Part shown: positions 9,014 to 53,782 of the stretch, piece after piece
Numbering within the stretch: position 1 is the stretch's first letter
Layout of the letters: the number at the start of each line of letters is the position of its first letter
From: Candidatus Humimicrobium oleiphilum
Lineage (GTDB): Bacteria; Actinomycetota; Humimicrobiia; Humimicrobiales; Humimicrobiaceae
DNA length: 64,000 nt
Assembly: GCA_002304935.1 (NCBI GenBank)
Contig: DBPS01000009.1
Location: 19,046 to 83,045, forward strand
Direction: 5' to 3'
Position numbers and translations under genes: made by a program
Notes under the pieces: model-generated
What the model was told of the DNA's origin: nothing
The model's input: the letters and a program-made list of their open reading frames with translations, nothing else
The model's database searches: none

Positions 9014-9106
9014 CTGTTTCACCTCCTTAAAGTCATCTTTAATTATAAATATGAATCGTTTCATATTTATATTATATATATTTGTTGATCTGTGTCAAAT
9101 ATTTTT

Positions 9107-10015
9107 TTACTGATTTAATTCCGGATAAGGGAATCTGTAGTGTCCGCTGACTTCCATTTCAGTAAGAGCATTGGTTTCAGTTATTTTGCCAAGGTCTTTT
9201 GTTATCATTATAATAAGAGGAATACCTTCAGGATTATTATGGTTTGAAATCATGCCTGCAATATCTTTCCCGGGGTTTTCGGCATCAACTGTAAAATAAA
9301 CGATATCCCCGGGCTGCCATTGAAGAATGCTGGCAGGGTCTGAAGCATCAAACTCAGTGGGAAGTTCCAGCGCATTACGCTGAAAGAACTTCTGCTGAAA
9401 ATATACGACCCTGAAGTCTGTTTTTTTATCAGGATTCTTGCTGCCCTTGATATCCATAGGGTATGCATCTATATGTTTGCTCATATCATCATATACAAGC
9501 TCCATTAAATCATAACCGCAATCATTTAAGACAACTGAAATAACATCAGTAGATATCCAGTATTTATCATTCGGATATCCTGTATCTGCATAAAACTGAT
9601 ACTGGTACTCAATATCTTCTTCAAGAAGCTTCATTAATCTTAATACTATTTTTTTCTGTTCTTCGCTTAGTTCAAATATGCCTGATTCATTTGCTGCTGA
9701 GGATTCCGTAGTGCCGGAAAATTCTTCAGTAGTAGCCAGAGCACTGCCCTCCTCTGACTCCGAACCGGTTATTTCATCCTCAGCCAGATTCTGATTTTTG
9801 AAATCAATCAATTCCGTTTCTTTTCCCTGGATATTTTCAGATAAAGGAAAATTAATAAAAGATTTAAACAGGTTCTGGGGGATTTCGATTTTTATTTCTT
9901 TATAGAAAGATTTCAGCATCCAGAACTGCAGGGCTGCCAGCGCAACAAAAAGCACTATTATAATATCATATCTTAATTTTCTTCTTCTTTGAGATTTTCT
10001 TATTCTGGTTTCCAT
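9107..10015 (-). CDS. DUF1287 domain membrane-anchored protein
   Basis: N-terminal TM, acidic linker, C-terminal YPND...GYDLMELVYDDMSKHIDAYP...FRVVYFQQKFF...GDIVYF pattern resembling DUF1287. Confidence 0.6.
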   Translation of the reverse strand: METRIRKSQRRRKLRYDIIIVLFVALAALQFWMLKSFYKEIKIEIPQNLFKSFINFPLSENIQGKETELIDFKNQNLAEDEITGSESEEGSALATTEEFSGTTESSAANESGIFELSEEQKKIVLRLMKLLEEDIEYQYQFYADTGYPNDKYWISTDVISVVLNDCGYDLMELVYDDMSKHIDAYPMDIKGSKNPDKKTDFRVVYFQQKFFQRNALELPTEFDASDPASILQWQPGDIVYFTVDAENPGKDIAGMISNHNNPEGIPLIIMITKDLGKITETNALTEMEVSGHYRFPYPELNQ

Positions 10016-10064
10016 GGACTTATATATTAGCTTAAAAATTCAATTAAATAAAGCAGGCTTTGCT

Positions 10065-10093
10065 TTGACTTTTAAAAACAATATTGTTATATA
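10065..10093 (+). promoter_or_regulatory. sigma70-like promoter (TTGACT-17-TATATA) for ior-paaK operon
   Basis: TTGACT 10065..10070, 17-nt spacer, TATATA 10088..10093. Confidence 0.5.
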
Positions 10094-10161
10094 TAAAGTT
10101 TATTATTTTTTTAAAAAATTGTTAAAATTACTTATTAAAATTTTTACTGCATCCAGGGGAT

Positions 10162-12051
10162 TTGATATTGGAAAAAGATGTTGTAATACTTACAGGAAAT
10201 GAAGCCATAGCATTAGGTGCCCATGAAGCAGGCGTCGGATTTGCGAGCGCTTATCCAGGGACTCCTTCCACTGAAATACTGGAAAATATTGCCAGATCAG
10301 GAAATATTTATTGCCAGTGGTCCACTAATGAAAAAGTTGCTTTGGAAGTTGCATCAGGTGCCAGCCTGGCAGGCAGAAGAGCTATTGTCGCAATGAAACA
10401 TGTCGGGCTTAATGTTGCTTCTGATCCTTTTATGACTCTTGCGTATACCGGCGTCAACGGAGGCCTGGTAATAATATCTGCAGATGATCCAGGCATGCAC
10501 AGCTCCCAGAATGAGCAGGATAACAGGTATTATGCAAAAATGGCAAAGGTGCCTCTTCTTGAGCCTTCAGATAGTCAGGAGTGTAAAGATTTTATTGTTA
10601 AAGCATTTGAAATAAGCGAGGAATATGATACGCCGGTCCTGCTAAGGACTACGACAAGAATATCCCATTCAGGTTCAGTCGTAAAAAAAAGTAAAGCAAG
10701 AAATCAGGAGACGGCCAGGACATATTCAAAAGATTCCATGAAGTATGTCATGATTCCTGCATTTGCCAGGAACAGGCATAAGATCCTTCTTGAAAAATTT
10801 GAAAAACTTAAGGAATTTTCCGATAAAACAGATATTAATAAAATTGTAAATTTAAAAGATAAAAAATCTTTCTGCAAGATAGGCATAATTTCAAGCGGAG
10901 CCTGTTTCCAGTATGCATCTGAGGCATTTAAAGACTATCCCATATTAAAATTAGGAATGACAAACCCTCTTCCTTTTGGTCTGATAGAAGATTTTGTATC
11001 TGACAAATCATTGATTATAGTTGTTGAAGAACTTGAACCATTCCTTGAGGAACAGATAAGAGCTTCTTTCTTAAATTGTAAAGTAATAGGAAAAAGTTTT
11101 TTACCCGGATATGGAGAGCTCAATGTTGAAATACTTAAGAGCCTGAATAAATTTATTGCCAGCGAAAATATCCTGGAATTTATTCATGAACATACATTAA
11201 AAGATTTGGAAAACAAGATAAAAAAGTTTAAAGAAAAAAATTCCTATATATCTGGAAATAAAGAAAAAAATGATATTAAAGATTCAGTAAAAAAAACAAT
11301 TCCTCCAAGACCGCCTGTTCTCTGTGCGGGATGTACCCACAGGCCTGTTTTTCATATTTTAAAAAAACTGAAGGTAATGGTGATGGGAGATATCGGATGC
11401 TATACTCTTTCAGTTCTGCCTCCACTTGACAGCCTTGACAGCTGTCTTTGTATGGGAGCTGGTGTGGGTCAGGCACTCGGGATTGAAAAAGCAAATGATA
11501 ATTATAAAAATAAAGTTGTTTCAGTAATCGGAGATTCTACTTTTTTCCATTCGGGGATTACTTCTCTTATTGATAATGTGTTTAACAGGGGGACCGGCCT
11601 TGTAATAATACTTGATAACAGAGTTACTGCCATGACCGGGCATCAGACAAATCCCGGAATAGGAAGTACTCTTATGGGTGAAGATACCCACATGATTCTT
11701 CCTGAAGAAATAGTAAAAGCTGTAGGGGTAAAAAATATACGGATTGTAGACCCATATGATGTCGATCTGCTGGAAAGAACAATAAAAGAAGAATTGAACA
11801 GGAAAGAACTTTCGGTCATTATCTGCCGTCAGGAATGTGCTCTTATAAACCAGAAACAAATACTAAGGGAATTCTATATAGACGAATCAGTATGTAAAAA
11901 ATGCGGAATGTGCATTAGGATCGGATGTCCGGCAATTGGATATGAAAACGATAAATATTTTATCAATCAGGCAATCTGTACCAGCTGTGGTGTCTGCTCA
12001 CAGATATGTCCGTGGGATTCAATTAAAGCAAATGAAGAGAATAACTTATAA
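10162..12051 (+). CDS. iorA: indolepyruvate:ferredoxin oxidoreductase alpha subunit
   Basis: TPP/pyrimidine-binding N-terminus, two C-terminal 4Fe-4S ferredoxin motifs (CKKCGMCIRIGCP, CTSCGVCSQICP); TTG start. Confidence 0.9.
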   Translation: MILEKDVVILTGNEAIALGAHEAGVGFASAYPGTPSTEILENIARSGNIYCQWSTNEKVALEVASGASLAGRRAIVAMKHVGLNVASDPFMTLAYTGVNGGLVIISADDPGMHSSQNEQDNRYYAKMAKVPLLEPSDSQECKDFIVKAFEISEEYDTPVLLRTTTRISHSGSVVKKSKARNQETARTYSKDSMKYVMIPAFARNRHKILLEKFEKLKEFSDKTDINKIVNLKDKKSFCKIGIISSGACFQYASEAFKDYPILKLGMTNPLPFGLIEDFVSDKSLIIVVEELEPFLEEQIRASFLNCKVIGKSFLPGYGELNVEILKSLNKFIASENILEFIHEHTLKDLENKIKKFKEKNSYISGNKEKNDIKDSVKKTIPPRPPVLCAGCTHRPVFHILKKLKVMVMGDIGCYTLSVLPPLDSLDSCLCMGAGVGQALGIEKANDNYKNKVVSVIGDSTFFHSGITSLIDNVFNRGTGLVIILDNRVTAMTGHQTNPGIGSTLMGEDTHMILPEEIVKAVGVKNIRIVDPYDVDLLERTIKEELNRKELSVIICRQECALINQKQILREFYIDESVCKKCGMCIRIGCPAIGYENDKYFINQAICTSCGVCSQICPWDSIKANEENNL

Positions 12052-12676
12052 TAGTCCGGATAAATATAAAGCAGTATCTGATGCTATTTTAAAAGAAACG
12101 GGAACAATTTCTGTTCTTTTTGCCGGTGTCGGAGGACAGGGGATACTTCTGGCTACAGGCATAATGGCAAGGGCGTGTCTTTTTGAAGGTTTTGATGTAA
12201 AAGTCTCTGAAGTTCACGGGATGGCCCAGCGAGGAGGAAGTGTCGTAGGGAGTATAAGGTTTGGGGAAAAAGTGTTTTCTCCTACAATTGATTTTGCAGA
12301 TTTTATTATTGCGCTTGAGGAATCAGAGCCATTAAGATATGTTGATAATCTTAAAAAGGACAGTGTGCTCATCTATAATACCTACAGGATTTACCCAACG
12401 ACTGTTTATGGCGGAAGCTGTAATTATCCTGGCAATATAAGAGAGATGCTTTTAAAATTTACATCAGATGTTTTTCCGGTAGATGCATATAAAATTGCAA
12501 GGCAGCAGGGAAAAAGCAAAGCTATGAATGTAGTTTTGCTGGGCTTTTTCTCTAATTTTCTTCCCATCAGCACTGACAGCTGGGAAAATGCAATAAAAGA
12601 TATTGTTTCACCGACAATTCTTGAAATAAATTTAAATGCTTTTAAAGCAGGCAGGAATCTTATTAATAATTTTTAG
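12032..12676 (+). CDS. iorB: indolepyruvate:ferredoxin oxidoreductase beta subunit (start uncertain; ORF frame opens at 11936)
   Basis: LFAGVGGQGILLATGIMARA ... EVHGMAQRGGSV gamma-domain motifs. Confidence 0.85.
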   Translation: MKRITYNSPDKYKAVSDAILKETGTISVLFAGVGGQGILLATGIMARACLFEGFDVKVSEVHGMAQRGGSVVGSIRFGEKVFSPTIDFADFIIALEESEPLRYVDNLKKDSVLIYNTYRIYPTTVYGGSCNYPGNIREMLLKFTSDVFPVDAYKIARQQGKSKAMNVVLLGFFSNFLPISTDSWENAIKDIVSPTILEINLNAFKAGRNLINNF

Positions 12677-12686
12677 GAGGTATAAA

Positions 12687-13085
12687 ATGCCGATAAAACA
12701 ACTAACTGTGTTTCTGGAGAACAAACTTGGAAGACTTGCTGAGGTTACAAGGATTTTAAAAAAAGAAAATGTCAATCTTCAGGGTTTTTCAACTACAGAA
12801 GCAAGAGATTACGGTATTTTAAGACTAGTAGTATCAGATGTTGAAAAGTCGAGGGCAGCTTTGAAAAAAGCAGGCTTTACAACTCATGTTGCTGACGCAA
12901 TATGCATAAGGGTTGAAGACAGACCGGGTGAACTGCTGAATGTTCTTGATACTCTTTCAGATGCTAAAATAAATATAGATTATATTTATGTTATTGCTGG
13001 AACGAGAGTAGTATTAAGTGTCCCGGAACTTGACAGAGCTGAAAAACTTCTGATTGAAAAGGGCTTCTTTATCTGCAGAGATTAA
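12687..13085 (+). CDS. ACT-domain protein (typical partner of phenylacetate-CoA ligase)
   Basis: tandem ACT repeats; AGGAGG RBS before ATG. Confidence 0.8.
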   Translation: MPIKQLTVFLENKLGRLAEVTRILKKENVNLQGFSTTEARDYGILRLVVSDVEKSRAALKKAGFTTHVADAICIRVEDRPGELLNVLDTLSDAKINIDYIYVIAGTRVVLSVPELDRAEKLLIEKGFFICRD

Positions 13086-13166
13086 GAAAGTAATCTATAA
13101 AATATTCTGCAGGCAGAGATTTATGACAGAATAGCTGTTTTGATTAAATATTAGTAAGGAAATGAA

Positions 13167-14483
13167 ATGGCTTTGGAATTTTTAAATGAAAGCATTGAAA
13201 CGGCAGACAGAAAAATCATTGAAGATATACAGACAGAAAGACTTAGAAACACCTTAGTAAATGTTTATGAAAATGTATTGTTCTACAAGAAAAGGCTGGA
13301 TGACTGCGGTGTTGATCCTTATAATTTCAAGGATATTGGCGAACTGCAGAAAATACCCTTTACAACCAAAGAAGATCTCAGGCTGAATTATCCTTTTCAT
13401 ATGCTTGCACGTCCTTTTGGGGAAATTGTAAGAATACACTCGTCTTCGGGAACTACAGGAAATCCTACAGTGGTGGCTTATACTGGCAGAGATATTGAAA
13501 TGTGGGGAAGCGTAATTGCCAGACAGCTTTTTTCTTTAAACCTGAGAAGGGGAGATATTTTTCAAAACAGTTATGGGTACGGACTGTTTACAGGCGGTCT
13601 GGGTCTTCATTATGGGATAGAGAAGCTTGGCGGAGTTGCTATTCCTGTATCAGGGGGAAATACAGAAAGACAGATTAAAATAATGCAGGATTTCTTATCT
13701 GATGTACTTTGCTGTACTCCTTCCTATGCTTTGCATATTGCGGAAGTCGGAAAAGAGCTTGGAGTTGATTTTTCAGGACTTTCCTTAAAAGCCGGTATCT
13801 TCGGAGCTGAGCCCTGGACAAACCAGATTAGAAAGGAAATTGAAAAGAGGCTAAAAATCAGCGCTTATGATATTTACGGTTTGAGTGAGGTGATAGGGCC
13901 GGGAGTTTCCTGTGAGTGTTATTGCAAAAAAGGGCTGCATGTAGCAGAAGATAATTTTATTGTTGAAACCATTGATCCCAAAACAGGTAAAAATGTGCCC
14001 GGTTCAGAGACAGGTGAGCTTGTTTTTACGACAATCACAAAGGAAGGCATGCCTGTTATCAGATACCGGACAAAAGACCTGTCAAATCTTGTCTATGATA
14101 AATGTGAATGTGGAAGGACCCATGTAAGAATGGCAAAACCAATAGGCAGGTCTGATGACATGCTGATAATAAGGGGGGTAAATGTGTTTCCTTCCCAGAT
14201 CGAGGAAGTGCTGATGAATGTAAAAGAAATAGAGCCTCATTATCTTATAGTTGTTGAAAAAAGAAATTTCCTTGATTTTATCGAAGTATGGGTAGAGGTA
14301 TCTGAAAATATTTTTTCAGAAAAAATGAATGCTCTTGAAATTTTTGAATCATCAATAGAGCACAAGCTTTATTCAGCTATAGGCATAAATATTGATGTAA
14401 AACTTAAAGAGCCAAAAACCATAAAAAGAAGCGAAGGTAAAGCCAGAAGGGTCGTTGATATGAGAAAAGGTGAAAAACCTTAA
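13167..14483 (+). CDS. paaK: phenylacetate--CoA ligase (aryl-acetate CoA ligase)
   Basis: SSGTTGNPT AMP-binding motif, PaaK-type architecture, 438 aa. Confidence 0.9.
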   Translation: MALEFLNESIETADRKIIEDIQTERLRNTLVNVYENVLFYKKRLDDCGVDPYNFKDIGELQKIPFTTKEDLRLNYPFHMLARPFGEIVRIHSSSGTTGNPTVVAYTGRDIEMWGSVIARQLFSLNLRRGDIFQNSYGYGLFTGGLGLHYGIEKLGGVAIPVSGGNTERQIKIMQDFLSDVLCCTPSYALHIAEVGKELGVDFSGLSLKAGIFGAEPWTNQIRKEIEKRLKISAYDIYGLSEVIGPGVSCECYCKKGLHVAEDNFIVETIDPKTGKNVPGSETGELVFTTITKEGMPVIRYRTKDLSNLVYDKCECGRTHVRMAKPIGRSDDMLIIRGVNVFPSQIEEVLMNVKEIEPHYLIVVEKRNFLDFIEVWVEVSENIFSEKMNALEIFESSIEHKLYSAIGINIDVKLKEPKTIKRSEGKARRVVDMRKGEKP

Positions 14484-14557
14484 TAATATCAAAGAGCAAT
14501 CAAATCAAATGAAAGAAAAGTAAAAAAGCTAAAATTAAGAGGAAACCAAAATATAGT

Positions 14558-15451
14558 TTGGAAAATCAAGACATAATAATCTCTGAAATCAATAAAATAA
14601 TATCTGAAGAAATAAAGTTTCTTAATAGATATTATGATTATGATCTGAAAAGATTTTTCTGTACGGAATTATTTTATGGCTCAGCTTTTCTTTCTTTTTT
14701 TAATATTAAAGATATCCGGGATTTCGATACTGGCAGGAATTACAGAATCAACAATCATCTTTATGGCAAAGCAAACTTTTCATTTTTTGATACTGGCAAG
14801 ATTATTGATCTTATTACCGGTATCGAGCTTCTTGCAATTGGCCTGAACATACATTCATCCCATGAAAACATACTGAGAAAGGTTTTTGGTAAATCAGAAA
14901 ATCCGGAGAAGATAATTGAAAAGAATTATACTATTGAGCTTTTATTCGGTGATATTTTTTATTCAAGGGCAATCTCATATCTTATAAATTTTGATGATTT
15001 TGTCATATTTGATAATATATTAAAGTCATTGCTATCGGTTCACCACTCCAGAATAATCATCCACCAGATGATAAAAGATGTTGTTAATGGCATTAAAAAT
15101 ATTTACTGGTTTTTCAATGAAGGTCTGACTGAAATAAAAATGTTAAATGCATTATTAAAAGAAATGTTTTTCACAGGGATAGGGGTATCAAATCTTGACG
15201 TCTCAGGAGAAAAAACCAAGGAATTTCTTGGAGTTATAGATAAAATAGTTTTATTAAAGACATATAATGATTTGGATGATTATACCAGGCAGGCATTATC
15301 TGAATCATCGGAAGCGATTCTATATAATCCCGCCGATGATTTTTACGCCAGGTCTGAAGACTTGAAAAAGAGTCTGGAAATAGAAATAAATAAACTTGAG
15401 CCTGAATGGATTAAAGACAATTTTTTAAAACTATCCTTTAAGTTTGTTTAG
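14558..15451 (+). CDS. polyprenyl synthase-like protein with degenerate first Asp-rich motif (probable non-catalytic subunit of heteromeric prenyl diphosphate synthase)
   Basis: aligns with downstream prenyl synthase: GIELLAIGLNIHSSHENIL vs GIEILHTASLIHDDIID; LLFGDIFYSRAI vs RYAGDYLFTYAF; second motif retained as YNDLDDY. Confidence 0.55.
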   Translation: MENQDIIISEINKIISEEIKFLNRYYDYDLKRFFCTELFYGSAFLSFFNIKDIRDFDTGRNYRINNHLYGKANFSFFDTGKIIDLITGIELLAIGLNIHSSHENILRKVFGKSENPEKIIEKNYTIELLFGDIFYSRAISYLINFDDFVIFDNILKSLLSVHHSRIIIHQMIKDVVNGIKNIYWFFNEGLTEIKMLNALLKEMFFTGIGVSNLDVSGEKTKEFLGVIDKIVLLKTYNDLDDYTRQALSESSEAILYNPADDFYARSEDLKKSLEIEINKLEPEWIKDNFLKLSFKFV

Positions 15452-15523
15452 AAGTTTATATGATTTTTATAAATTAACTGACAAATCAGGGTCAATTACT
15501 ATAAGATTAGAAGGCAAAAGATA

Positions 15524-17248
15524 ATGATTAAAACAGATCTGACATTGTTACACGCACCAAGCGTATATGATTTCAGGAAAAAGAATATTTTTTATGGTCC
15601 TATGAGCGATCTTGTTCCTTCATCCCCTATATTTGAAATGTATCCGATAGGATTTCTGACTATGTCGAACTATCTTGAGAAAAGAGGAATAAGCGTAAGG
15701 ATAATAAATCTCGCTTACCTTATGATGTCTGATAAAAATTTTGATGCAGAAAAATTTATAGGTAAAATAAAAACAAAAACTTTCGGTATAGATATGCACT
15801 GGCTTCCACACTGCCAGGGCTCTAATGAGGTCGCAAAGATAATAAAGCAGTATCATCCTGATACCCCTGTTATTTTTGGAGGATTTTCATCTTCTTATTT
15901 TTATAAAGAACTCATAAGTTTTCCCCATGTCGACTTTATCCTGAGAGGAGACTCAGCTGAAGAACCTCTGTATCAGCTTATGAGTGTAATTAAAAATAAT
16001 AAAGGTGATCTTTCGCTTTTAAAACAAATACCCAATCTTGTCTGGAAAGAGAAAAACGAAATCCATGAAAATCCGATAAGCTGTATATCAGAAGATCTTG
16101 ATGAAGTTGATTTTGATTACAGAATAATGTTTAAACAGGTATTAAAATATAGAAGCCTTAAATCTGTAGTTCCTTTCAATGGATGGATGGATTATCCGGT
16201 CACAACAATACCCGTCATCAGGGGATGCAACAAGAACTGTTCAGGTTGCGGAGGTTCAAAAGCAGCATTTGAACTTTTCGGGAAAAGGACCAGACCTGCG
16301 TTCAGGCAGCCTGAAAAACTTATTGATGAAATACTTTTAACTCAGAGATATATTGATGCTCCTGTTTTTATACTTGGAGATATAACACAGGGAGGAAAAG
16401 AATATCTTGAAGAATTCTTTAAAAATTCAAAAAGATTAAATAAAGATATGCAGATATTCTTTGAATTTTTTGAGCCACCGGACGAATGGTTTTACGACAG
16501 AGTCGCAGAAAATTTTAATTATTTCTGTTTTGAAATCTCGCCTGATTCTCACGATGAGAATATAAGACAGAAAATGGGAAAGCAGTTTACAAACAGCCGT
16601 CTTGTCTCAGGAATTAAATATGCGCTTAAAAAAGGAGCCCGGAGATACGATCTTTATTTCATGACCGGGTTACCGGGACAGACAAAAAGATCAATCATGC
16701 AGACTGTAGATTTTTGCAGGGAGCTTTATGAAACGCTTGAATGGGACAAAAGATTTATGCCGTTTGTTTCTCCCATGGCTCCTTTTATTGATCCCGGAAG
16801 CAGGGCATTTGAAAATCCTGATGAATTCGGTTATGTGATTACCAAAAAAACCCTTGCGGAGCATATTGAAGCCATAACAATGCCTTCCTGGAAATATATA
16901 CTTAATTATGAGAGCAAATCCTTAACAAGAGATGAAATGGTAGAAGCTACATACAATTGCGCAATCGGCCTCAATGCTCTGAAAGGCAGGGCAGGGAGCA
17001 TAAGCAGAAAAGTAATGGAAGAAAATGAAGAGAGAATAATATCTGCCAGAAAAATAATGTCTGAAATAGACAGGATCGTGTCTGATAAAAAAGATCTCTA
17101 TGAAAGCAGGAGTTTTGAAAGCTTAAAAGACAAAGCAATGGAATACAGTCTCTCTACAGTATGCGACAAGAAGGAGCTGGAATTTCCTTTTACAAAGAAG
17201 AATTTTAAATGGTGTTCAATAATAAGAACAGTTCTTTTCAATAGGTGA
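15524..17248 (+). CDS. B12-binding radical SAM protein
   Basis: N-terminal cobalamin-binding-like domain (YPIGFLTMSNYLEKRGISVRIINL ... DFILRGDSAEEP), CxxxCxxC (CNKNCSGC) radical SAM cluster motif. Confidence 0.8.
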   Translation: MIKTDLTLLHAPSVYDFRKKNIFYGPMSDLVPSSPIFEMYPIGFLTMSNYLEKRGISVRIINLAYLMMSDKNFDAEKFIGKIKTKTFGIDMHWLPHCQGSNEVAKIIKQYHPDTPVIFGGFSSSYFYKELISFPHVDFILRGDSAEEPLYQLMSVIKNNKGDLSLLKQIPNLVWKEKNEIHENPISCISEDLDEVDFDYRIMFKQVLKYRSLKSVVPFNGWMDYPVTTIPVIRGCNKNCSGCGGSKAAFELFGKRTRPAFRQPEKLIDEILLTQRYIDAPVFILGDITQGGKEYLEEFFKNSKRLNKDMQIFFEFFEPPDEWFYDRVAENFNYFCFEISPDSHDENIRQKMGKQFTNSRLVSGIKYALKKGARRYDLYFMTGLPGQTKRSIMQTVDFCRELYETLEWDKRFMPFVSPMAPFIDPGSRAFENPDEFGYVITKKTLAEHIEAITMPSWKYILNYESKSLTRDEMVEATYNCAIGLNALKGRAGSISRKVMEENEERIISARKIMSEIDRIVSDKKDLYESRSFESLKDKAMEYSLSTVCDKKELEFPFTKKNFKWCSIIRTVLFNR

Positions 17249-17289
17249 TTTGCAGACTGGTTTGAAAATTATATTATTTTATTAATTTA

Positions 17290-18282
17290 TTGATTATGTT
17301 CCGTAATTTTAAAAAAACCCGGTTTTTAAAAAGGGATCTGGCAGTACTTGATGATTATATCAAATCTATTGTCAGCAATCTGGATGACACGCTTGGCAAA
17401 GTGATTGCCAGCACTCTTCTGGCTGGAGGAAAAAGAATAAGGCCTGCATTATTTCTGATATGCGCCAAAAATAAAAAATATAATATAGACTATCTTTTAC
17501 CTGCAGCAGCCGGGATTGAAATTCTTCATACTGCTTCACTTATTCACGACGACATAATAGATAATTCCTTTTTAAGAAGAGGCAAAAAGACCATTCATAA
17601 TGTTTATGACAAAGATACAGCAAGATATGCCGGAGATTATCTTTTTACATATGCTTTCTATCTCCTGAACAGCTACTCAGATAATCTTATACATAAAGAA
17701 ATGTCAAATACTTCACAAAATCTTGTAATGGGTGAATTTGATCAGCTTAAAACCAAGAGCCTTCTAAGACAGTCTGAAAAAGTCTATCTCGAAAAGATAA
17801 ATGAAAAAACTTCTTCTTTATTTAAGCTAAGCTGCGTTCTTGGCGGTATTCTGTCAGATTCTGAAGAAAGCGATATAGATAATATGAGAAAATTCGGCGG
17901 TCTGCTGGGAATGGCTTTTCAGATAAATGACGATTTAATAGATATAAATATTAATAAACCTGCAGATAAAATAGACAAACCTATAGGGAACGACATAAGA
18001 CAGGGCAATATAACCCTGCCGATAATCTATGCCTTAAGGGATGAAAAAATAAATACCGAAATAAAAAAGTTACTTGAAAAAGAAGATTTTTCAGAAGATG
18101 ATGCTGATATGATATTGAAATTAATCAACAGTTCCGAAGTTGTCGGAATGGTCAGGCAAAAAGTATTTTATTATCTTGATGAAGCAAAAAAAATCGCTGC
18201 CTCAGTTAATGGCAGTTCAAGACGCAACGGTCTTATGGAAGTATGTGACTATCTGATGGGAGCGATAGAAATAAATCAGTAA
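17290..18282 (+). CDS. long-chain polyprenyl diphosphate synthase (trans-IPPS, HepT/IspB-like)
   Basis: LIHDDIIDNSFLRRGK (FARM) and FQINDDLID (SARM); small residues at -4/-5 of FARM suggest long product. Confidence 0.85.
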   Translation: MIMFRNFKKTRFLKRDLAVLDDYIKSIVSNLDDTLGKVIASTLLAGGKRIRPALFLICAKNKKYNIDYLLPAAAGIEILHTASLIHDDIIDNSFLRRGKKTIHNVYDKDTARYAGDYLFTYAFYLLNSYSDNLIHKEMSNTSQNLVMGEFDQLKTKSLLRQSEKVYLEKINEKTSSLFKLSCVLGGILSDSEESDIDNMRKFGGLLGMAFQINDDLIDININKPADKIDKPIGNDIRQGNITLPIIYALRDEKINTEIKKLLEKEDFSEDDADMILKLINSSEVVGMVRQKVFYYLDEAKKIAASVNGSSRRNGLMEVCDYLMGAIEINQ

Positions 18283-18324
18283 CTAAATATGTACAAACTG
18301 ACAAAAAATATTGAAAAGGCCTAG

Positions 18325-19290
18325 ATGAATTTTTATTTAAAAACTTTTATTGAAGTATTAAGTGTTACCATACCTATTTTTGTGGTGGTAGTTATAGGAT
18401 ATCTGTTCAGGAGAAGGGGGATAATTTCTGAAAGAGCTGTTCCTGCTTTAAATAAAATAGCATATTATCTTGGCCTTACGACACTAATTTTTACAAGCAT
18501 AGTAAAATATGACCTGAAAGAAATCTTTAATATCGGTATTGTTAAAACAATTTATACTACTTTTGCAATTTTTATTGTCATTGTTTTTATCTCTGTTTAT
18601 TTTCTGAAGGTCGGTAGAAAAACAAAGGGAGCCATGGCAATATCAAGTTTCAGATGCAATATGGCTTTTGTCGGGATACCAGTGATTATATCAGCATTTG
18701 GAGATATTGCCGGTGCAAAAACAAGCATAATAATCGGATTTATGACCCCTGTAAATATTATCTTTGCAATAATATTCTTAAGAGTCCTTGGCGGGCAGGA
18801 TAATGAAAGAAAAAACTATGGCAGGTTTTTCTTAAGCTTTCTGAAAGACCCTCTTCTGATTGCAGCAGTAGCAGGGATACTAATTTCCTATTTTAGTATT
18901 CCGCTTCCAAAAGCTTTGCTGGATCTGTTAAATATTCTTGCAGGGCTTGCAATACCACTGGCGCTTATAACAATCGGTGCTTCTTTTAGAATTGCCCACA
19001 TAAAACTTAATCTTAAATTTTTAATATTAACATCAATACTGAAACTTGTGGCAGAACCTCTTATTGCTTTTTTTATCGGAAAGTATATGTATGCAATTGA
19101 TCCTGTGGATATAAGCATCATCGTGATTTTATTCGGGATGCCTCTTGCAGTTGCAGCATATATTATGGGAAGAGAATATGATTCTGATTCTGATTTTATT
19201 TCATCAGCGCTGATTCTATCGACAGTAACTTCGGCTCTTACAATAACTCTCTGGCTTTTCTTTTTAAAAATATTTTTCCGGATGACCTGA
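18325..19290 (+). CDS. AEC-family (auxin efflux carrier) membrane transporter
   Basis: 10-TM architecture, AEC signature N-terminus. Confidence 0.7.
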   Translation: MNFYLKTFIEVLSVTIPIFVVVVIGYLFRRRGIISERAVPALNKIAYYLGLTTLIFTSIVKYDLKEIFNIGIVKTIYTTFAIFIVIVFISVYFLKVGRKTKGAMAISSFRCNMAFVGIPVIISAFGDIAGAKTSIIIGFMTPVNIIFAIIFLRVLGGQDNERKNYGRFFLSFLKDPLLIAAVAGILISYFSIPLPKALLDLLNILAGLAIPLALITIGASFRIAHIKLNLKFLILTSILKLVAEPLIAFFIGKYMYAIDPVDISIIVILFGMPLAVAAYIMGREYDSDSDFISSALILSTVTSALTITLWLFFLKIFFRMT

Positions 19291-19335
19291 GGACATAATA
19301 ATCGTGAAGACTTAAAGATATTATATATAATAAAT

Positions 19336-21678
19336 TCAGTACAGCATATTATAGATATAATAGCTTTCCATCACCTTTTTGATGTAATTTTTTGTCTCAT
19401 CATAAGTTATACTCTCTATGAATTCGTCAATATCAAAGTTTCCATAATTATTTATCCATCTCTGCATTGCTCCCGGTCCACCGTTGTAAGCGCCAAGAGC
19501 ATAGTACTTGTTATTTCCAAAATTTTTTAATTGCTGTGAAATATAATATGCCCCCATCTTTATGCTGGTTTCCGGGTCATGCAGCATATTGTCGTTATAA
19601 TTACCTATGCCGATCTGGCTTGCAATATTATTCCCTGTTGCCGGCATTATCTGCATAAGGCCCTGTGCTCCGGCATGTGAACCAGCATCAGCTTTAAAAC
19701 GAGACTCTTCCCTTATAATTGCAAGAATAAATTTTTCATCAATTCCATATGTCTGAGAATATTTTCTGATAAATTCTTTATAAGCGAAAGGATAGAAAAG
19801 ATAGTAGTAATAATCTTTCTGGCTGCCTGAAAGTCCTGAAGATAATTTTTTATAATTCTTCTGGACAATCAGAATTGAATTTTCATAATCCCTGCTTTTA
19901 AGATACATGGTAGATATTTCAAGTATTTTTGAAGGATCTGTATCTGTTTCTTCTCCTGAGGCTTCTATTTCTGAAGCGGCGCTATTATAAAATTCAATAA
20001 ATAATAATTCCTTTGCCTTGTTTATATGGGTTGCTTCCTCTTTTGTAGAGACAATCTGCGGCTCAAGATACCTGTATATCTCAGGGATAATTCCGGCAAT
20101 TTCAGGATTATCAGGATCAAGTTCCTTGTTAATTGCAGGGAAAACCACATCAATTCCAAGATTTTTAAGCGCATTTGATGATTCGAAACCATAATAAGAC
20201 AGAGGATTTACTGAAAATACACTTTTATACCCATCAATTGCTTCCTCTTTTCTTCCAAGCTTTTCAAGGCTTTTCGTTTTCCAGAAAAGACTTTTTTCTT
20301 CAAGAGACGTTCCCTTAAAATGTTTTGACATATCATCGAAAGTATAAAGAGAGCCATTAAAATCCTGAAGCCTGTATTTTATCCAGCCCAGCTCCCAGTA
20401 GGCATCTGATATTCTGTCGCCTGACGGGTATTCATCTATTATTCTCTGATAATAGAAAGCAGCATTCTGAAGGTCTTCAGCAATATAAGATATTCTTCCC
20501 GTCCTGTACAGGCAGTCATCGGCAAAGTTACTGGAAGGAAAAAGCTCAAGGAGTTTTTTATATTTCTTTATAGCTCCTTCATTATCATCTAAATTAGTCA
20601 GGCATCTTCCCAGGTAATAAAGACTGTCATCTGCAAGCTCGCCTACAGGATATTTATCAAAGTTTTTCTGCAGATATTCTTCTGCATTTTTATAATCATT
20701 CATATTATAAAAACTCATTCCTGTCCTAAAAAGAGTTTTGGAATAAATATCAGGATTGGAATTTTCCAGGTTTTTATCCTGAAGTATTTTGCTGAAGGTT
20801 TCAAGGGCAAGATCATAGTAATATATTTTAAAAAGTTTTTCTCCCCTTGAATACAGTTCACTGGCATCAGGCTTGAATTGCGGCAGGTTTTCAATATTTG
20901 CAAGACGGTTCAGATTATCAAATGAATAAACCGCATACTCAGTTTCCGGATAATCAAGATATATTTTTTTAAATACCGAATATGCTTCATCAAGCTTTTT
21001 ATTTTTTTCCATACATACTCCCTGCTGAAAAAGACCGTAAGGAGCAAGGGAAGAATCGGGATATTCTTTTATATAAGAACCATACTTTTCTTCTGCAATA
21101 GCATAATCTTCATTCAGATAATATGAATCAGCAAGTTCAATATATGATTTTTCCCTGAATATGCTTTCTTTGTAATTTTCAATTACAAGCTGATAATTCA
21201 TGGCACTTAAGTCATATTTTTCCTGAAGCAGCATGCTTTTTGCAAGGTAATATCTTATATGGTCTTCCAGTATCAGATACTTTGATTTTATCTTTTCCAG
21301 ATAATATTGTGCCTTTACATACTCTTTTTCTTCAAATGCTTCCACACCCAGAATAAAGTAATGTCTTTGTGTTTCAATATCATTGATATTCCCGCTATCC
21401 GCAGGCTTGTTGCTATTAAATACAATTGTGCTTGTCGTAGAAGTTTCATCTATTTCTGATGTCGATACAGTGGTGGTATCAGTATCTGAAGCATTTGTGC
21501 CGGTATTACCTGAACCGGTATCATTACTGGAATCAGTCGTAGAAGCTTCAGTATTTTTCTGTGGCGAATCAGACTTTTTTATTGCTGCACATCCCGGAAA
21601 TATCAGCGAAGAGATAATAAAAACAAATAAAAACAGAATAGCTGAAATCTTTGCCATAAGTCTTTTTTCTATACGCAT
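19336..21678 (-). CDS. lytic transglycosylase (SLT domain) with TPR repeats and Ser/Thr-rich linker
   Basis: C-terminal ESRFKADAGSHAGAQGLMQIMPATG SLT motif; TPR repeats; lipoprotein-type signal peptide. Confidence 0.85.
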   Translation of the reverse strand: MRIEKRLMAKISAILFLFVFIISSLIFPGCAAIKKSDSPQKNTEASTTDSSNDTGSGNTGTNASDTDTTTVSTSEIDETSTTSTIVFNSNKPADSGNINDIETQRHYFILGVEAFEEKEYVKAQYYLEKIKSKYLILEDHIRYYLAKSMLLQEKYDLSAMNYQLVIENYKESIFREKSYIELADSYYLNEDYAIAEEKYGSYIKEYPDSSLAPYGLFQQGVCMEKNKKLDEAYSVFKKIYLDYPETEYAVYSFDNLNRLANIENLPQFKPDASELYSRGEKLFKIYYYDLALETFSKILQDKNLENSNPDIYSKTLFRTGMSFYNMNDYKNAEEYLQKNFDKYPVGELADDSLYYLGRCLTNLDDNEGAIKKYKKLLELFPSSNFADDCLYRTGRISYIAEDLQNAAFYYQRIIDEYPSGDRISDAYWELGWIKYRLQDFNGSLYTFDDMSKHFKGTSLEEKSLFWKTKSLEKLGRKEEAIDGYKSVFSVNPLSYYGFESSNALKNLGIDVVFPAINKELDPDNPEIAGIIPEIYRYLEPQIVSTKEEATHINKAKELLFIEFYNSAASEIEASGEETDTDPSKILEISTMYLKSRDYENSILIVQKNYKKLSSGLSGSQKDYYYYLFYPFAYKEFIRKYSQTYGIDEKFILAIIREESRFKADAGSHAGAQGLMQIMPATGNNIASQIGIGNYNDNMLHDPETSIKMGAYYISQQLKNFGNNKYYALGAYNGGPGAMQRWINNYGNFDIDEFIESITYDETKNYIKKVMESYYIYNMLY

Positions 21679-21919
21679 AATTTAATCTGACAATTTGTTT
21701 TATAAAAAAATAAATCAGGTACATTAATGTACCTGCAGAAAACAGTATTTATTATTTTAAAGTATTAAACACACATAATCAAACTAGCTTCCTAAAAAAA
21801 TAAATGGAAAAATTGAATTAAAAAGTAACAGAGATCTGAATCTGACTTATTAACAACATGTTTTATATATTAATATTTAATATTACTTTACTTTTGTCTT
21901 CATTTAATATTTATTATTT

Positions 21920-46932: not shown

Positions 46933-48498
46933 TCATCCCAGTATTTTTTTAAGATCCTCTCCAGGAGTGCTTATAGGAGAAATATTAAATTTTTCTACCA
47001 GCACATTTAAAACATTGGAAGACACAAATGCCGGCAATGTCGGACCCAGATAGATATTTCTGATTCCGAGAGAAAGAAGCGTAAGCAATATACATACCGC
47101 TTTCTGTTCATACCATGAAAGTACAAGTGCCAGTGGTAGTTCATTGACTCCGCAATTAAATGCATCTGCAAGTGCCAGAGCAACTTTAATTGCAGAATAT
47201 GCATCATTGCACTGACCCATATCCATTATTCTTGGAAGACCCCCGATCTCACCTATATTCAAATCATTAAATCTGAACTTGCCGCAGGCAAGGGTAAGAA
47301 TAACCGTATCTTTCGGTGTCATGCTTACAAAATCAGTATAGTAATTTCTGCCAGGTTTTGCCCCGTCACATCCGCCTACAAGGAAAAAGTGTTTTATTGC
47401 TCCTGCTTTTACAGCTTCAATGACTTTGTCGGCAACTCCGAGAACAGTATTCCGAGCAAATCCGGTCATCAGCTCAGAACCACCGTTTATTCCTGTGAAA
47501 TGCATATCTTTATCCCAGCCTCCAAGCTCAAGCGCTTTTTTTATTACAGGAGAAAAATCTTTAATTCCGTTTTTACCTTCAGGGATGTGTTTCATTTCAG
47601 GAAATCCCACTACTGATGTGGTAAACACCCTGTCAGCATAGCTGGACCTGGGCGGCATAAGGCAATTTGTCGTAAATAGTACCGGTGCAGGAATATCAGC
47701 AAATTCTTTCTGCTGATTCTGCCAAGCAGTTCCGAAATTTCCCCTAAGATGGGAATATTTTTTTAATTCAGGATAACCATGAGCTGGTAGCATTTCACCA
47801 TGCGTATATATATTTATCCCTTTGCCTTCTGTCTGTTCAAGAAGCTGCTTCAGATCCAGAAGATCATGTCCTGTTATAACTATAAAAGGCCCCTTTTCAA
47901 CATTTGTTGTGACTTTTGCAGGAACAGGATGTCCGTATGCAGAGGTATTTGCTTCATCAAGAAGAGCCATGCACTTAAGATTTGCCTGTCCGAACTCCAT
48001 AATAATATCCAGCCATTGTTCAATGCTATGCTCTTCGGCCATGGCTTTAAGACCTTTGTAAAACCAACCGTTGATTTCATCATCACTTTTACCCAGAACA
48101 TAAGCATGCCACGCATATGCTGCCATTCCCCGCATGCCAAACAAAAGCGTTGACCTAAGAGAAACAATGTCTGTATCTCCGCTCCAAAGTGATTCTGCAT
48201 TAAAATCATTGCTACCTTTTAATCTGATTATTTCCTTTTGAACCTGTGAATTTAATACTTCGATACGGTTATAGTCAAAATTGACATTTGTTATTGTTGC
48301 AAAAAGACTTTGCATTACAAGTTCATCAGCTTCTCTGCCCGGACTTTTACCATCCGAAGCTATGGCAAGATTTACTAGAGAAGCAGTCAGCTTATCCTGA
48401 TTATTGGCTACATCTGGTTTTTTCCCGCACACACCGGTTTTTATGCATCCTTTGCCACCGGCAGTCTGCTCACACTGAAAACAAAACATTTCATTCAT
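46933..48498 (-). CDS. hcp: hydroxylamine reductase (hybrid-cluster protein)
   Basis: N-terminal CFQCEQTAGGKGC cubane cluster motif, 521 aa. Confidence 0.9.
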   Translation of the reverse strand: MNEMFCFQCEQTAGGKGCIKTGVCGKKPDVANNQDKLTASLVNLAIASDGKSPGREADELVMQSLFATITNVNFDYNRIEVLNSQVQKEIIRLKGSNDFNAESLWSGDTDIVSLRSTLLFGMRGMAAYAWHAYVLGKSDDEINGWFYKGLKAMAEEHSIEQWLDIIMEFGQANLKCMALLDEANTSAYGHPVPAKVTTNVEKGPFIVITGHDLLDLKQLLEQTEGKGINIYTHGEMLPAHGYPELKKYSHLRGNFGTAWQNQQKEFADIPAPVLFTTNCLMPPRSSYADRVFTTSVVGFPEMKHIPEGKNGIKDFSPVIKKALELGGWDKDMHFTGINGGSELMTGFARNTVLGVADKVIEAVKAGAIKHFFLVGGCDGAKPGRNYYTDFVSMTPKDTVILTLACGKFRFNDLNIGEIGGLPRIMDMGQCNDAYSAIKVALALADAFNCGVNELPLALVLSWYEQKAVCILLTLLSLGIRNIYLGPTLPAFVSSNVLNVLVEKFNISPISTPGEDLKKILG

Positions 48499-48625: not shown

Positions 48626-49387
48626 TCAAAAGCTTTTTTGAGCGTATATTTTAATGCTTGATGCATAATCTTCCCGGCTGTTAAAAGGATATCTGACTTC
48701 ATCTATAATTTTAATATTTATAAAGCCAGCTCTTTTTATGGAGTCCAGATAATCTTCTTTTAATATTGCACCAGATATACAGCTGACATAGGCAGCAATG
48801 TCATTCTTTATATAATCCGGAAGTTCTCTTATAAGAACTATATCTGATACCATCATCCTGCCTCCTGGTTTTAATACCCTGAAAGCTTCTTTAAATACCC
48901 TGTCTTTATCAGGGGACAGATTAATAACGCAGTTAGAAATGACAACGTCTATTTTATTATCAGCACATGGAATATTTTCAATTTCTCCCAACCTGAATTC
49001 TACATTCGAAAAATTTCCTTTAACTGCATTTTCTCTTGCTTTTTCCAGCATGTCGCTGGTCATATCGACACCTATGACTTTTCCATCCGGTCCTACCCTT
49101 TCTGCCGCCAGAAAACAGTCAAATCCTGCACCGCTGCCAAGGTCAAGAACAATTTCACCTTCTTTAAGAGACGCAATTGCAACAGGATTACCGCAACCGA
49201 GACCGAGATTTGAACCTTCAGGGACTTTTTCCAAATCTTCATCAGAGTATCCCATTTCAAGGCTTATTTCTCTTTCTATTCCCCTCTGTCCGCAGCAGTT
49301 GCTAAAAGAAGATGAGCAGCATGAGTTTTCTTTTGCAATTTTGGAGTAGCCTTCCCTTACAATTTTTTTTATATCTCTTTCTTCCAT
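48626..49387 (-). CDS. arsM: arsenite S-adenosylmethionine methyltransferase
   Basis: SAM-binding VLDLGSGAG, N-terminal Cys pairs (CCSSSFSNCCG), conserved Cys in C-terminal region. Confidence 0.8.
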   Translation of the reverse strand: MEERDIKKIVREGYSKIAKENSCCSSSFSNCCGQRGIEREISLEMGYSDEDLEKVPEGSNLGLGCGNPVAIASLKEGEIVLDLGSGAGFDCFLAAERVGPDGKVIGVDMTSDMLEKARENAVKGNFSNVEFRLGEIENIPCADNKIDVVISNCVINLSPDKDRVFKEAFRVLKPGGRMMVSDIVLIRELPDYIKNDIAAYVSCISGAILKEDYLDSIKRAGFINIKIIDEVRYPFNSREDYASSIKIYAQKSF

Positions 49388-49400
49388 TTAAATCCCTTGC

Positions 49401-49745
49401 TTATTCTATATTTAATTTTTTAATCTCATTATATAATGCAGCACCTTTTATATCCCCGTAAAATACAAGCTCTCCGTTGAGGCGTGTCAGTGGTAAAGGA
49501 TATCCGATATCTATTGCCTTTTTAACATTACCATACTGTTCCAGATCATTATTTTCTATATCGATAAAACTTAATTCTGTAATATCTTTTACATCACTGC
49601 CATTTATAAATACTTCCATTTTCCCGTAAAGCTCATCTGTCCTTATGGAAGGGCAGCCACAGCCGCCGCAGCTGCAGCTACAGGCTCCGCTGCCGGCATT
49701 CTGTTCCGGGATTCCGAAAACTTCGACTTTTGCTTTTTTAACCAT
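49401..49745 (-). CDS. ArsD-like arsenic metallochaperone (thioredoxin-like fold) with Cys-rich N-terminal loop
   Basis: C-terminal GYPLPLTRLNGELVFYGDI resembles ArsD GLPLLLLDGETVMAGRYP; N-terminal GACSCSCGGCGCP. Confidence 0.5.
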   Translation of the reverse strand: MVKKAKVEVFGIPEQNAGSGACSCSCGGCGCPSIRTDELYGKMEVFINGSDVKDITELSFIDIENNDLEQYGNVKKAIDIGYPLPLTRLNGELVFYGDIKGAALYNEIKKLNIE

Positions 49746-49979
49746 GTTTTATAACCTGCCTTTCAAAAATAAAATCATTATATATAGATATATTTATATG
49801 TATCGATATGTTATCTGATAAAAAATTAAATTGTCAAGTAATTTGATTTGAATTAACATATCGATAAAAATAAATATGCCTTAATAGTTTTTAAATTAAA
49901 AAACCAGTTGTTTATTTTGGAAAAATATAAAAATTGTAAGGCATATATATGAATATTGATTAAGGAAGAAATATTTTAA

Positions 49980-50363
49980 GTGGTTATGTTAAAAGAAATA
50001 GTAAAAATTAACAGGGCATTGTCTGATATTACAAGATTAAGGATAATGGCGCTTCTTTATAAGAAGAAGAAATTATGTGTATGTGAAATAAAAGAGGTAA
50101 TAGGCTTGTCCCAGCCAACGGTTTCAAGCCATTTGAAAATACTTGAAAGCGGACGTCTGATAAAAGGATTCAGGGAAGGCAAGTGGATGAATTATGAAAT
50201 TAACGAAAGTCTTGAAGAGAAAAAAAGAAAATATATAAAACTTATAATTTCTTTACTTAAAGATGACAGCCAGACAGCTGCTGACGAAGAAAAAGCAAAA
50301 AAAGCGGACAGATTCTGCCTTTGCAGGCAGCCTGGCAGAATTAAGAGAAATATTTCTTGTTAA
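49980..50363 (+). CDS. arsR: ArsR/SmtB-family transcriptional regulator
   Basis: ELCVCEIKEVIGLSQPTVSSHLKIL metal-binding/HTH motif. Confidence 0.85.
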   Translation: MVMLKEIVKINRALSDITRLRIMALLYKKKKLCVCEIKEVIGLSQPTVSSHLKILESGRLIKGFREGKWMNYEINESLEEKKRKYIKLIISLLKDDSQTAADEEKAKKADRFCLCRQPGRIKRNISC

Positions 50364-53768: not shown

Positions 53769-53782
53769 AAAGGAGGGCACAA

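Follow-up and report, generated by a model that had tools for sequence, protein, structure and literature searches.

A gene for a B12-domain radical SAM protein is flanked by two genes related to prenyl diphosphate synthases in Candidatus Humimicrobium oleiphilum. What does its product act on, and does the permease gene that follows serve the same pathway? The four genes occupy positions 14558-19290 of the window, the 64,000-nt stretch of DNA analysed here:

14558..15451, + strand: ORF5, trans-isoprenyl-diphosphate-synthase (IDS) fold, catalytically inactive; putative HepS/HexA-like small subunit
15524..17248, + strand: cobalamin-domain radical SAM protein (rSAM) of the TIGR04190 (Ta0216) family; proposed to tailor quinones, probably by C-methylation
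17290..18282, + strand: HepT/HexB-like medium/long-chain trans-prenyl diphosphate synthase (PF00348, Asp-rich motifs), catalytic large subunit
18325..19290, + strand: AEC-family permease (PF03547), functional tie to the module doubtful

As originally predicted, the genes are co-directional and closely spaced; all four are real and the intergenic gaps measure 41-72 bp. The remainder of the window contains housekeeping genes only. No men or mqn genes were found within the window or in the 10 kb upstream of it, where again only housekeeping genes are present. A promoter and terminator scan gave counts that did not differ from those in shuffled sequence. With moderate confidence, we read the locus as a divergent version of the gerC-type (hepS-menG-hepT) operon for isoprenoid-quinone side chains, in which rSAM is a quinone-tailoring enzyme.

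Enzymes encoded at the locus

Judged by its sequence, the third gene encodes a complete medium/long-chain trans-prenyl diphosphate synthase resembling HepT and HexB, which agrees with its first assignment as a long-chain trans-enzyme. It scores 207.5 bits against PF00348. Both Asp-rich motifs are present (DDIID at residue 87 and DDLID at residue 214), and the first is preceded by TASLIH, which places the small residues Ala and Ser at positions -5 and -4; these are the features of a catalytic large subunit. Its two top NCBIfam scores are to the HepT model TIGR02748 (236.3 bits, the best) and the HexB model NF045628 (196.3 bits). Unlike HepT, it stays under the equivalog cut-off of TIGR02748 (456.55), and it is also below that of NF045628 (500). 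Among solved structures, B. subtilis HepT (9kp1_B, E 3.5e-49) comes nearest, followed by M. luteus HexB (3aqb_B, E 1.5e-43); both are among the top three PDB matches.

ORF5 (297 aa) has no sequence-family match. Its confident structural model shows a trans-prenyl-diphosphate-synthase fold that superposes on HepS, HexA and IDS large subunits, and the Asp-rich motifs are missing. Small subunits combine an IDS-related helical fold with the loss of these catalytic motifs, and therefore ORF5 resembles the HepS/HexA type, from which we infer a small-subunit role. The initial description of ORF5 as a degenerate, catalytically dead polyprenyl-synthase paralog thus fits the model. At the profile level the link to IDS is weak and runs via short IDS-like subunits, and none of 27 ORF5-family members matched PF07307, the Pfam family of HepS, or PF00348 at E<=1. 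ORF5 differs from HepS in falling outside PF07307 and in being nearly as long as a full IDS.

Family match, domains and predicted structure agree that rSAM is a cobalamin-type radical SAM protein and a member of TIGR04190 (B12_SAM_Ta0216), as first proposed; its use of cobalamin is predicted. Its family score, 641.7 bits, exceeds the cut-off of 500, and residues 5-532 align to positions 1-526 of the 554-position profile. An N-terminal B12-binding Rossmann domain (PF02310, 35.4 bits against a threshold of 32.1) is followed by the radical SAM domain (PF04055, 53.7 against 29.5). The three cysteines of the CxxxCxxC motif, C235, C239 and C242, are invariant across 50 sequences. The predicted structure superposes on class B enzymes. 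Its best three structural neighbours are CysS, TsrM and MgmA, and TokK also matches. All four are cobalamin-dependent methyltransferases, with sequence identities to rSAM of 12-17% and with unrelated substrates (antibiotic precursors, tryptophan and protein glutamine). A PDB profile search with the rSAM alignment yielded zero homologues at E<0.01.

The original prediction drew parallels to the hopanoid methylases HpnP/HpnR and the archaeal GDGT ring synthases. The likeness of enzyme class stands: like HpnP/HpnR, GrsA/B, Gmm/Cgm/Pgm and Ted, which act on hydrophobic isoprenoid substrates and are found in anaerobes, rSAM joins an N-terminal B12 Rossmann domain to a radical SAM barrel. At family level rSAM has no significant match to the hopanoid models HpnR (41.1 bits, cut-off 650) and HpnJ (27.6 bits, cut-off 577.6), and its genomic context, unlike that of the hopanoid and GDGT enzymes, consists of quinone and respiration genes. 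It is not a member of the BchE family TIGR02026 either (50.5 bits, cut-off 481.35). The prediction was to fall if rSAM clustered with an unrelated family, for example BchE or peptide maturases, and the gene order was not kept in relatives; it clusters with neither, and the order is kept. We also considered an archaeal GDGT enzyme (Grs, Gmm, Cgm or Ted) or a butanetriol-backbone methylase, since Methanomassiliicoccales carry the family. Either identity, judged here by distribution and context, is unlikely because TIGR04190 is abundant in Bacteria and its context is that of quinones. Ted homologues, by contrast, are reported as archaeal (bioRxiv 10.1101/2025.10.20.683597).

TIGR04190 is large, with 868 clusters (50% identity) at E<=1e-30. 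Actinomycetota, Chloroflexota, Desulfobacterota, Planctomycetota, Bacteroidota and Thermoplasmatota together contribute thousands of members. In the literature searched, we found no functional study of TIGR04190/Ta0216, or of menaquinone together with a B12/cobalamin radical SAM enzyme.

Gene neighbourhoods and MenG fusions

The neighbourhoods of 80 rSAM loci were surveyed. Twelve related Actinomycetota MAG loci keep the order ORF5-rSAM-synthase-AEC permease, and the synthase invariably lies immediately 3' of rSAM in the window's clade. Three loci (L003, L004 and L012) have genes inserted between ORF5 and rSAM; from translations read by eye, the inserts seem unrelated (GGDEF-type, tRNA-synthetase-like, dehydrogenase-like and regulator-like).

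In more distant Actinomycetota the genes run small subunit-rSAM-MenG-large subunit-amidohydrolase and overlap or almost touch; at two of these loci (L015 and L021), which have a small IDS on one side and an IDS on the other, the gaps range from -1 to 9 bp. MenG in the Actinomycetota loci is identified by TIGR01934 (241 bits, cut-off 158). This operon with overlapping stop and start codons is retained while rSAM diverges down to 45% identity. In roughly 18 MAG loci, either Coriobacteriia-like or from Actinomycetes, rSAM-MenG-amidohydrolase stands beside multihaem cytochromes, CcsB or Rex. Antisense ORFs over MenG in high-GC loci had formed a gene cluster of their own (c14), which was rejected as an artefact.

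Other phyla show related neighbours. MenA lies 43 bp 3' of rSAM in a Cytophagia MAG (TIGR00751 113 bits, cut-off 102), and a Planctomycetota MAG has MenA and an IDS 3-5 kb upstream of rSAM. In a Dehalococcoidia MAG NuoD overlaps the stop codon of rSAM, the L080 cluster contains a UbiA-family prenyltransferase, and Methanomassiliicoccales have UppS-rSAM adjoining GGR, IDS and an Fpo-like operon. A 'MenG-like' gene near rSAM in an Anaerolineales locus (L072) was left out of the evidence because on inspection it is ArsM-like, with a Cys-rich N-terminus.

Two proteins join TIGR04190 to a full-length UbiE/MenG (PF01209, 240 and 235 bits). The two rSAM portions share just 48% identity, and the fusions differ in genomic context. 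The adjacency of rSAM to MenG and its fusion with MenG point to a step of quinone tailoring in anaerobes that is as yet undescribed.

The known operons nearest in layout are hepS-menH(menG)-hepT (gerC-type) of B. subtilis and hexA-menG-hexB of Micrococcus luteus, which encode heteromeric heptaprenyl and hexaprenyl diphosphate synthases, respectively. In both, and by our reading in the window too, genes for a non-catalytic small subunit and a DDxxD large subunit flank a tailoring gene. The sandwiched gene in the window differs, being a B12-domain radical SAM gene, and MenG is absent from the window locus. The Bacillus hepS-methylase-hepT arrangement had been cited as a parallel, and the relatives make it more than analogy: related Actinomycetota keep MenG between the subunit genes, straight after rSAM, and rSAM-MenG fusion proteins exist.

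Proposed quinone tailoring and its alternatives

In our model, the inactive ORF5 and the catalytic synthase would form a heteromeric medium-chain prenyl diphosphate synthase, whose all-trans product of about C30-C35 would supply the tail of a menaquinone-type quinone. The substrate of rSAM would then be (demethyl)menaquinone or menaquinol that already carries its prenyl tail, at the same late stage of the pathway as MenG. The likeliest reaction would be a B12-dependent C-methylation yielding a methyl-menaquinone-type product. The heterodimer, the chain length, the quinone substrate and the chemistry, whether on ring or tail, are what we infer; the folds, the motifs, the family memberships, the gene order, the neighbourhoods with MenG, MenA, IDS, Nuo and Fpo genes and the rSAM-MenG fusions are observations. 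Of the 'modified polyprenyl, quinone or lipid' first envisaged as the product, the evidence favours the quinone and not a generic polyprenyl or lipid.

rSAM could alter the polyprenyl chain, or else an isoprenoid lipid such as a membrane lipid or the phosphate of a polyprenol or dolichol, in place of a quinone, by methylation, cyclisation or desaturation at an unactivated carbon in the manner of HpnP/HpnR, Grs, Gmm/Cgm or Ted. Modification of the quinone's own tail is counted under quinone tailoring. A prenyl diphosphate synthase is the sole feature that the contexts in Bacteria and Archaea have in common: Actinomycetota and Planctomycetota have a trans-IDS there, Methanomassiliicoccales have UppS with GGR and IDS. 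Family proteins show 43-45% identity and 77 invariant columns, which usually means a common substrate class, and no quinone is known from Methanomassiliicoccales (PMC6019823). Isoprenoid chains are, moreover, well-documented substrates of class B radical SAM enzymes (bioRxiv 10.1101/2025.10.20.683597; PMC11214058; PMC13459092). We nevertheless consider this explanation unlikely. The fusion partner is not a synthase but MenG, an enzyme whose substrate is the prenylated quinone; the direct neighbours MenA and NuoD indicate a quinone; and the HpnR and HpnJ scores are negligible.

The same neighbourhoods could instead be inherited synteny with no common pathway, rSAM having an unrelated role in anaerobes, such as cofactor biosynthesis or the post-translational methylation of a respiratory complex or its maturation (cf. 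Mmp10 and MgmA, which act on MCR). The Actinomycetota linkage traces to one ancestral operon, and complex-I-like genes adjoin rSAM in both Dehalococcoidia and Methanomassiliicoccales. MgmA, ranked third among the structural matches, is a protein methylase, and BzaD, which makes the B12 lower ligand, is the second-best NCBIfam match of rSAM (56 bits). Roughly half of the 80 loci have no isoprenoid or quinone neighbour. Against this, the overlapping-codon operon survives the divergence of rSAM, MenA adjacency is of independent origin in two further phyla, and two diverged MenG fusions are hard to account for without a common substrate or pathway. Synteny without a common pathway seems to us quite improbable.

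We give very little credence to the proposal that the locus is a dedicated four-gene module in which the product of the three enzymes, be it a modified polyprenyl, quinone or lipid, is exported by the AEC permease. The permease (PF03547, 92.7 bits against a gathering threshold of 25.7; TIGR00946, 84.4 bits, cut-off 246) has about nine hydrophobic segments. Its gene is co-directional, starts 42 bp 3' of the synthase gene and trails the synthase in most loci of the window's clade. In none of the other lineages does it do so, and it is absent from all those that keep the rSAM-IDS or rSAM-MenG linkage. Prenyl lipids and quinones of C30-C35 are membrane-resident and need no exporter. The AEC family transports small organic anions, e.g. 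auxin, malate and malonate. Export is unsupported, since the permease adjoins the module only in the window's own clade and lipid export is not a known role of AEC proteins; it is probably a lineage-specific neighbour only.

Implications for the TIGR04190 family

Beyond this locus, we tentatively propose, as a possibility still open to considerable doubt, that TIGR04190 has gone unrecognised as a cobalamin-dependent tailoring enzyme for quinones that is widespread among anaerobic Bacteria and Archaea and non-homologous to the class C MenK/MqnK methylases. MenK, MqnK and MenK2 are HemN-like class C radical SAM menaquinone C-methyltransferases that do the kind of job proposed here, the extra methylation of menaquinone in anaerobes that gives low-potential methyl-menaquinones (PMC10114718; bioRxiv 10.1101/2025.09.17.676790). 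Their architecture, which has no cobalamin domain, was not found in rSAM. Thermoplasma acidophilum, the namesake organism of the Ta0216 family, makes a methylated menaquinone, thermoplasmaquinone, which accounts for 97% of its quinones under anaerobiosis (PMC10821996). TIGR04190 could be the missing enzyme for such thermoplasmaquinone-type methyl-menaquinones, or could serve another orphan quinone change, that of methionaquinone or omega-cyclic menaquinone.

A 2026 review on lipid-modifying radical SAM enzymes lists no class B enzyme for a quinone or polyprenyl (PMC13459092), and several rare quinones were still without known enzymes in a 2025 survey (bioRxiv 10.1101/2025.09.17.676790). If TIGR04190 tailors menaquinone, a widespread orphan family would gain a function, and the over-methylated low-potential quinones that serve as chemotaxonomic and redox biomarkers would have two non-homologous routes in place of one. 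Quinone chemistry in anoxic habitats would then depend on cobalamin availability, and the presence of the family in Methanomassiliicoccales would hint at an undetected prenylated electron carrier for their Fpo-like complex.

Gene layout and the predicted prenyl synthase subunits

The module consists of four genes whose coordinates and common + strand are exactly as originally predicted, with intergenic spacings of 72, 41 and 42 bp:

14558-15451, + strand, ORF5, first of the four co-directional genes
15524-17248, + strand, B12-binding radical SAM protein (rSAM; Pfam and NCBIfam)
17290-18282, + strand, polyprenyl synthetase (Pfam and NCBIfam)
18325-19290, + strand, AEC-type permease (Pfam and NCBIfam)

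No terminator-like hairpin was found among the four ORFs; scans for promoters and terminators scored about as many hits as in shuffled sequence and are therefore uninformative either way. A convergent gene begins at 19336. Its 780-aa product (19336-21678, - strand) carries TPR and SLT lytic transglycosylase domains, and the gene is syntenic in related Actinomycetota MAGs. The top NCBIfam model, the Borrelia BB0259 flagellar-assembly lytic transglycosylase, scores 175 bits, below its 234-bit cut-off. The gene is consistent with reports of flagella in deep-branching Actinobacteria (PMC10746217).

The first gene had been described as a degenerate polyprenyl synthase. Direct searches were negative: ORF5 matched nothing in Pfam, NCBIfam or the PDB sequences, BLAST found no similarity to the neighbouring synthase, and at a threshold as loose as E<=1 none of 27 ORF5-family members matched the HepS family (PF07307) or PF00348. 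This small family (38 clusters, annotated as hypothetical throughout) comes from Actinomycetota or 'Humimicrobiaceae' MAGs. In more distant loci, its position is taken by a clearly isoprenyl diphosphate synthase (IDS)-like protein of 180-280 aa, which matches large subunits (hhalign, 99.5%, E 2e-23) and the HepT model (45-79 bits). The ORF5 profile matches this protein weakly across equivalent helices (68%, E 4.7e-5). Therefore, the description holds in the sense that ORF5 is an inactive IDS-fold protein occupying the small-subunit position. In two relatives' loci (L004 and L012), unrelated genes intervene between ORF5 and rSAM.

The 17290-18282 synthase has both Asp-rich motifs (DDIID at 87 and DDLID at 214). 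The residues at -5/-4 ahead of the first are Ala and Ser, the pattern of medium- and long-chain enzymes. It scores highest against two NCBIfam models, HepT and the large subunit of hexaprenyl-PP synthase, each time under the equivalog cut-off, and among solved structures the closest are B. subtilis HepT (E 3.5e-49), a decaprenyl-PP synthase and M. luteus HexB. The synthase thus fits the catalytic partner of a putative heteromeric synthase, presumably of C30-C35 products.

Upstream of the module lie genes for IorA (709 bits against a 651-bit cut-off), IorB, an ACT protein and a PaaK-like ligase (Pfam/NCBIfam). Outside the window's own clade, neither these genes nor the AEC permease accompany the module. 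The order IorA-IorB-ACT-(extra gene)-PaaK (10162-14483) is syntenic with the module throughout that clade (L001-L012) and not beyond, and PaaK is duplicated in several members. The Ior/PaaK linkage seems to reflect the history of the lineage, not a common function. We likewise treat the permease as a neighbour rather than a component, and its distribution leaves the suggested export of a product unsupported.

Two other regions of the window drew attention. Class I fumarate hydratase parts, alpha-type (PF05681, 28686-29546, +) and beta-type (PF05683, 29504-30046, -), are convergent with a 43 bp overlap rather than co-directional, perhaps through inversion or a quirk of the assembly. At 48626-55125 lies what looks like an arsenic or metalloid island, encoding an ArsM-like methyltransferase (-), an ArsP permease, a thioredoxin-domain protein, a DsbD-type membrane protein and an SBF/Acr3-like carrier; a hybrid-cluster (prismane) protein gene (46933-48498) adjoins it.

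The radical SAM family and its neighbourhoods

NCBIfam places rSAM in TIGR04190 ('B12_SAM_Ta0216'; 641.7 bits, cut-off 500), an uncharacterised yet widespread enzyme family. All remaining class B (cobalamin) families scored at most 56 bits (BzaD 56, BchE 50, PhpK 44, HpnR 41; NCBIfam). An alignment of 50 bacterial and archaeal members, with identity down to 42%, has 77 invariant columns, and the C235-x3-C239-x2-C242 motif is invariant. Besides the MenG fusions described below, one long member is fused to TatC (P0284) and another to a PGA_cap domain (P0289).

We compared 80 loci from species-representative genomes. The 12 nearest ('Actinomycetota' MAGs, rSAM 55-70% identical), like contigs with 86-100% identity, retain the order IorAB-ACT-PaaK-ORF5-rSAM-IDS-AEC-SLT. 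The order is small IDS-rSAM-(MenG)-IDS-amidohydrolase in another Actinomycetota group (Geothermocultor, Subteraquimicrobium and relatives; rSAM 47-50% identical). In two of its loci (L015 and L021) the small-subunit stop overlaps the rSAM start, and subsequent gaps are 3-9, 4 and 7 bp. The menaquinone methylase MenG is identified by TIGR01934 (241 bits against 158), and the amidohydrolase, a TRZ/ATZ-type enzyme, is related to the deaminases of aminofutalosine, 5'-deoxyadenosine and SAH. In a third group (~18 Coriobacteriia-like or Actinomycetes MAG loci), multihaem cytochromes, CcsB or Rex precede rSAM-MenG-amidohydrolase. The three groups cluster together in a neighbour-joining tree of rSAM proteins, suggesting a single ancestral operon, small-rSAM-MenG-large-amidohydrolase, that decayed differently among lineages; in the window clade both synthase genes would have stayed while MenG disappeared from the locus. 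The Actinomycetota linkage is thus a matter of few independent events.

Three loci (L014 4212-5585, L015 1458-4330, L021 1455-4514) carry one or two extra B12 radical SAM paralogues between CcsB and the small IDS-rSAM-MenG-IDS operon, accompanied by a conserved 127-132 aa membrane protein of no assigned family. One paralogue resembles BchE, with 400 bits against a cut-off of 481. An Actinomycetes MAG (nzgw113, L080 245-9689) encodes a UbiA-family prenyltransferase, a 463-aa B12 radical SAM protein, two weak Peptidase_U32 proteins (possibly UbiU/UbiV-like), an EB_dh haem-domain protein, small IDS, TIGR04190 and large IDS. This extended cluster may represent an anaerobic route to an unusual quinone.

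In two of the best 150 family representatives, a full-length UbiE/MenG domain (PF01209, nearly the whole profile) is attached behind an entire TIGR04190 protein:

P0279, L091 1290-3770, 826 aa, TIGR04190-UbiE/MenG fusion, PF01209 240 bits
P0296, L092 8001-10682, 893 aa, TIGR04190-UbiE/MenG fusion, PF01209 235 bits

P0296, found on two contigs, has the usual amidohydrolase and TPR genes downstream; P0279 is flanked by ABC-transporter genes. Their rSAM halves are 48% and MenG halves 37% identical to each other, whereas each rSAM half is 57% identical to some unfused protein. The fusions are therefore probably independent of each other and not a sequencing artefact. MenG methylates prenylated demethylmenaquinone, and its fusion is the strongest single pointer to the rSAM substrate.

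Outside Actinomycetota, MenA lies 43 bp downstream of rSAM in a Cytophagia MAG (TIGR00751, 113 bits against 102). In a Planctomycetota MAG (L060 1946-8701), MenA, IDS and a PTO1314-like radical SAM gene precede TIGR04190 on the same strand. For the PTO1314-like protein the top model, the PTO1314 family of Picrophilus, scores 134 bits, under cut-off; two radical SAM families each named for a Thermoplasmatales gene co-occur here in a bacterial menaquinone cluster. In a Dehalococcoidia MAG, NuoD overlaps the rSAM stop and is followed by NuoH and NuoL/M, and a Hydrothermarchaeota locus places rSAM among multihaem cytochromes and a molybdopterin oxidoreductase. About half of the 80 loci (Anaerolineae, Desulfobacterota) were uninformative, with MoxR/DUF58, SurE, SelA or gyrB-parB as neighbours.

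Proposed quinone tailoring and alternative substrates

The reading that fits the locus best is a diverged gerC-type operon. Such operons have the order hepS-menH/menG-hepT in Bacillus and hexA-menG-hexB in Micrococcus luteus, and both heteromers (HepS/HepT and HexA/HexB) are among the PDB matches of the module proteins. Unlike in these operons, a class B radical SAM gene lies between the synthase subunits. ORF5 and the synthase would make the prenyl tail, and rSAM, like MenG, would come in late in the pathway and act on a prenylated naphthoquinone or naphthoquinol. The original interpretation is partly supported: its 'modified polyprenyl, quinone or lipid' can be sharpened to the tailoring of a menaquinone-type quinone.

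C-methylation, though unproven, would be the most likely chemistry. Most characterised class B enzymes are methylases, and these are also the closest structural neighbours of rSAM; TsrM sets a precedent by methylating an electron-rich aromatic carbon; and extra ring methylation of menaquinone is already known biology. Class B enzymes can also cyclise, desaturate (Ted), dehydrate (AprD4-like) and form thioethers. The extra ring methylation has so far been ascribed only to class C (HemN-like) MenK/MqnK (PMC10114718; bioRxiv 10.1101/2025.09.17.676790), which are not homologous to rSAM. The family is named for Ta0216 of Thermoplasma acidophilum. This organism makes thermoplasmaquinone, a methylated menaquinone reaching 97% of its quinones in anaerobic growth (PMC10821996), which is suggestive only.

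The Methanomassiliicoccales favour a different substrate, the polyprenyl chain or an unknown carrier: they are described as having neither cytochromes nor known quinones (PMC6019823), yet all seem to have an rSAM gene adjoining UppS. Their UppS-rSAM pair (including on three contigs of 1.4-2.4 Mb) adjoins a geranylgeranyl-reductase homologue, IDS and an Fpo-like complex operon. On L088 (2.45 Mb) and L089 (1.42 Mb), at ~9100-21700, UppS-TIGR04190 directly adjoins an 11-subunit Fpo/Nuo-like operon, with the reductase homologue and a trans-IDS intervening on L089. For an order said to lack quinones and methanophenazine, this context may indicate a prenylated electron carrier not yet described, or else a polyprenol modification. 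No men or mqn genes were found within the window or 10 kb upstream of it, so quinone synthesis by this organism is unproven. Given these tensions, together with the few independent events and the versatility of class B enzymes, we lean with modest confidence towards rSAM being a quinone-tailoring class B enzyme inside a heteromeric prenyl-PP synthase operon. The module would then be a variant of a known operon type, centred on a widespread family that is still uncharacterised.
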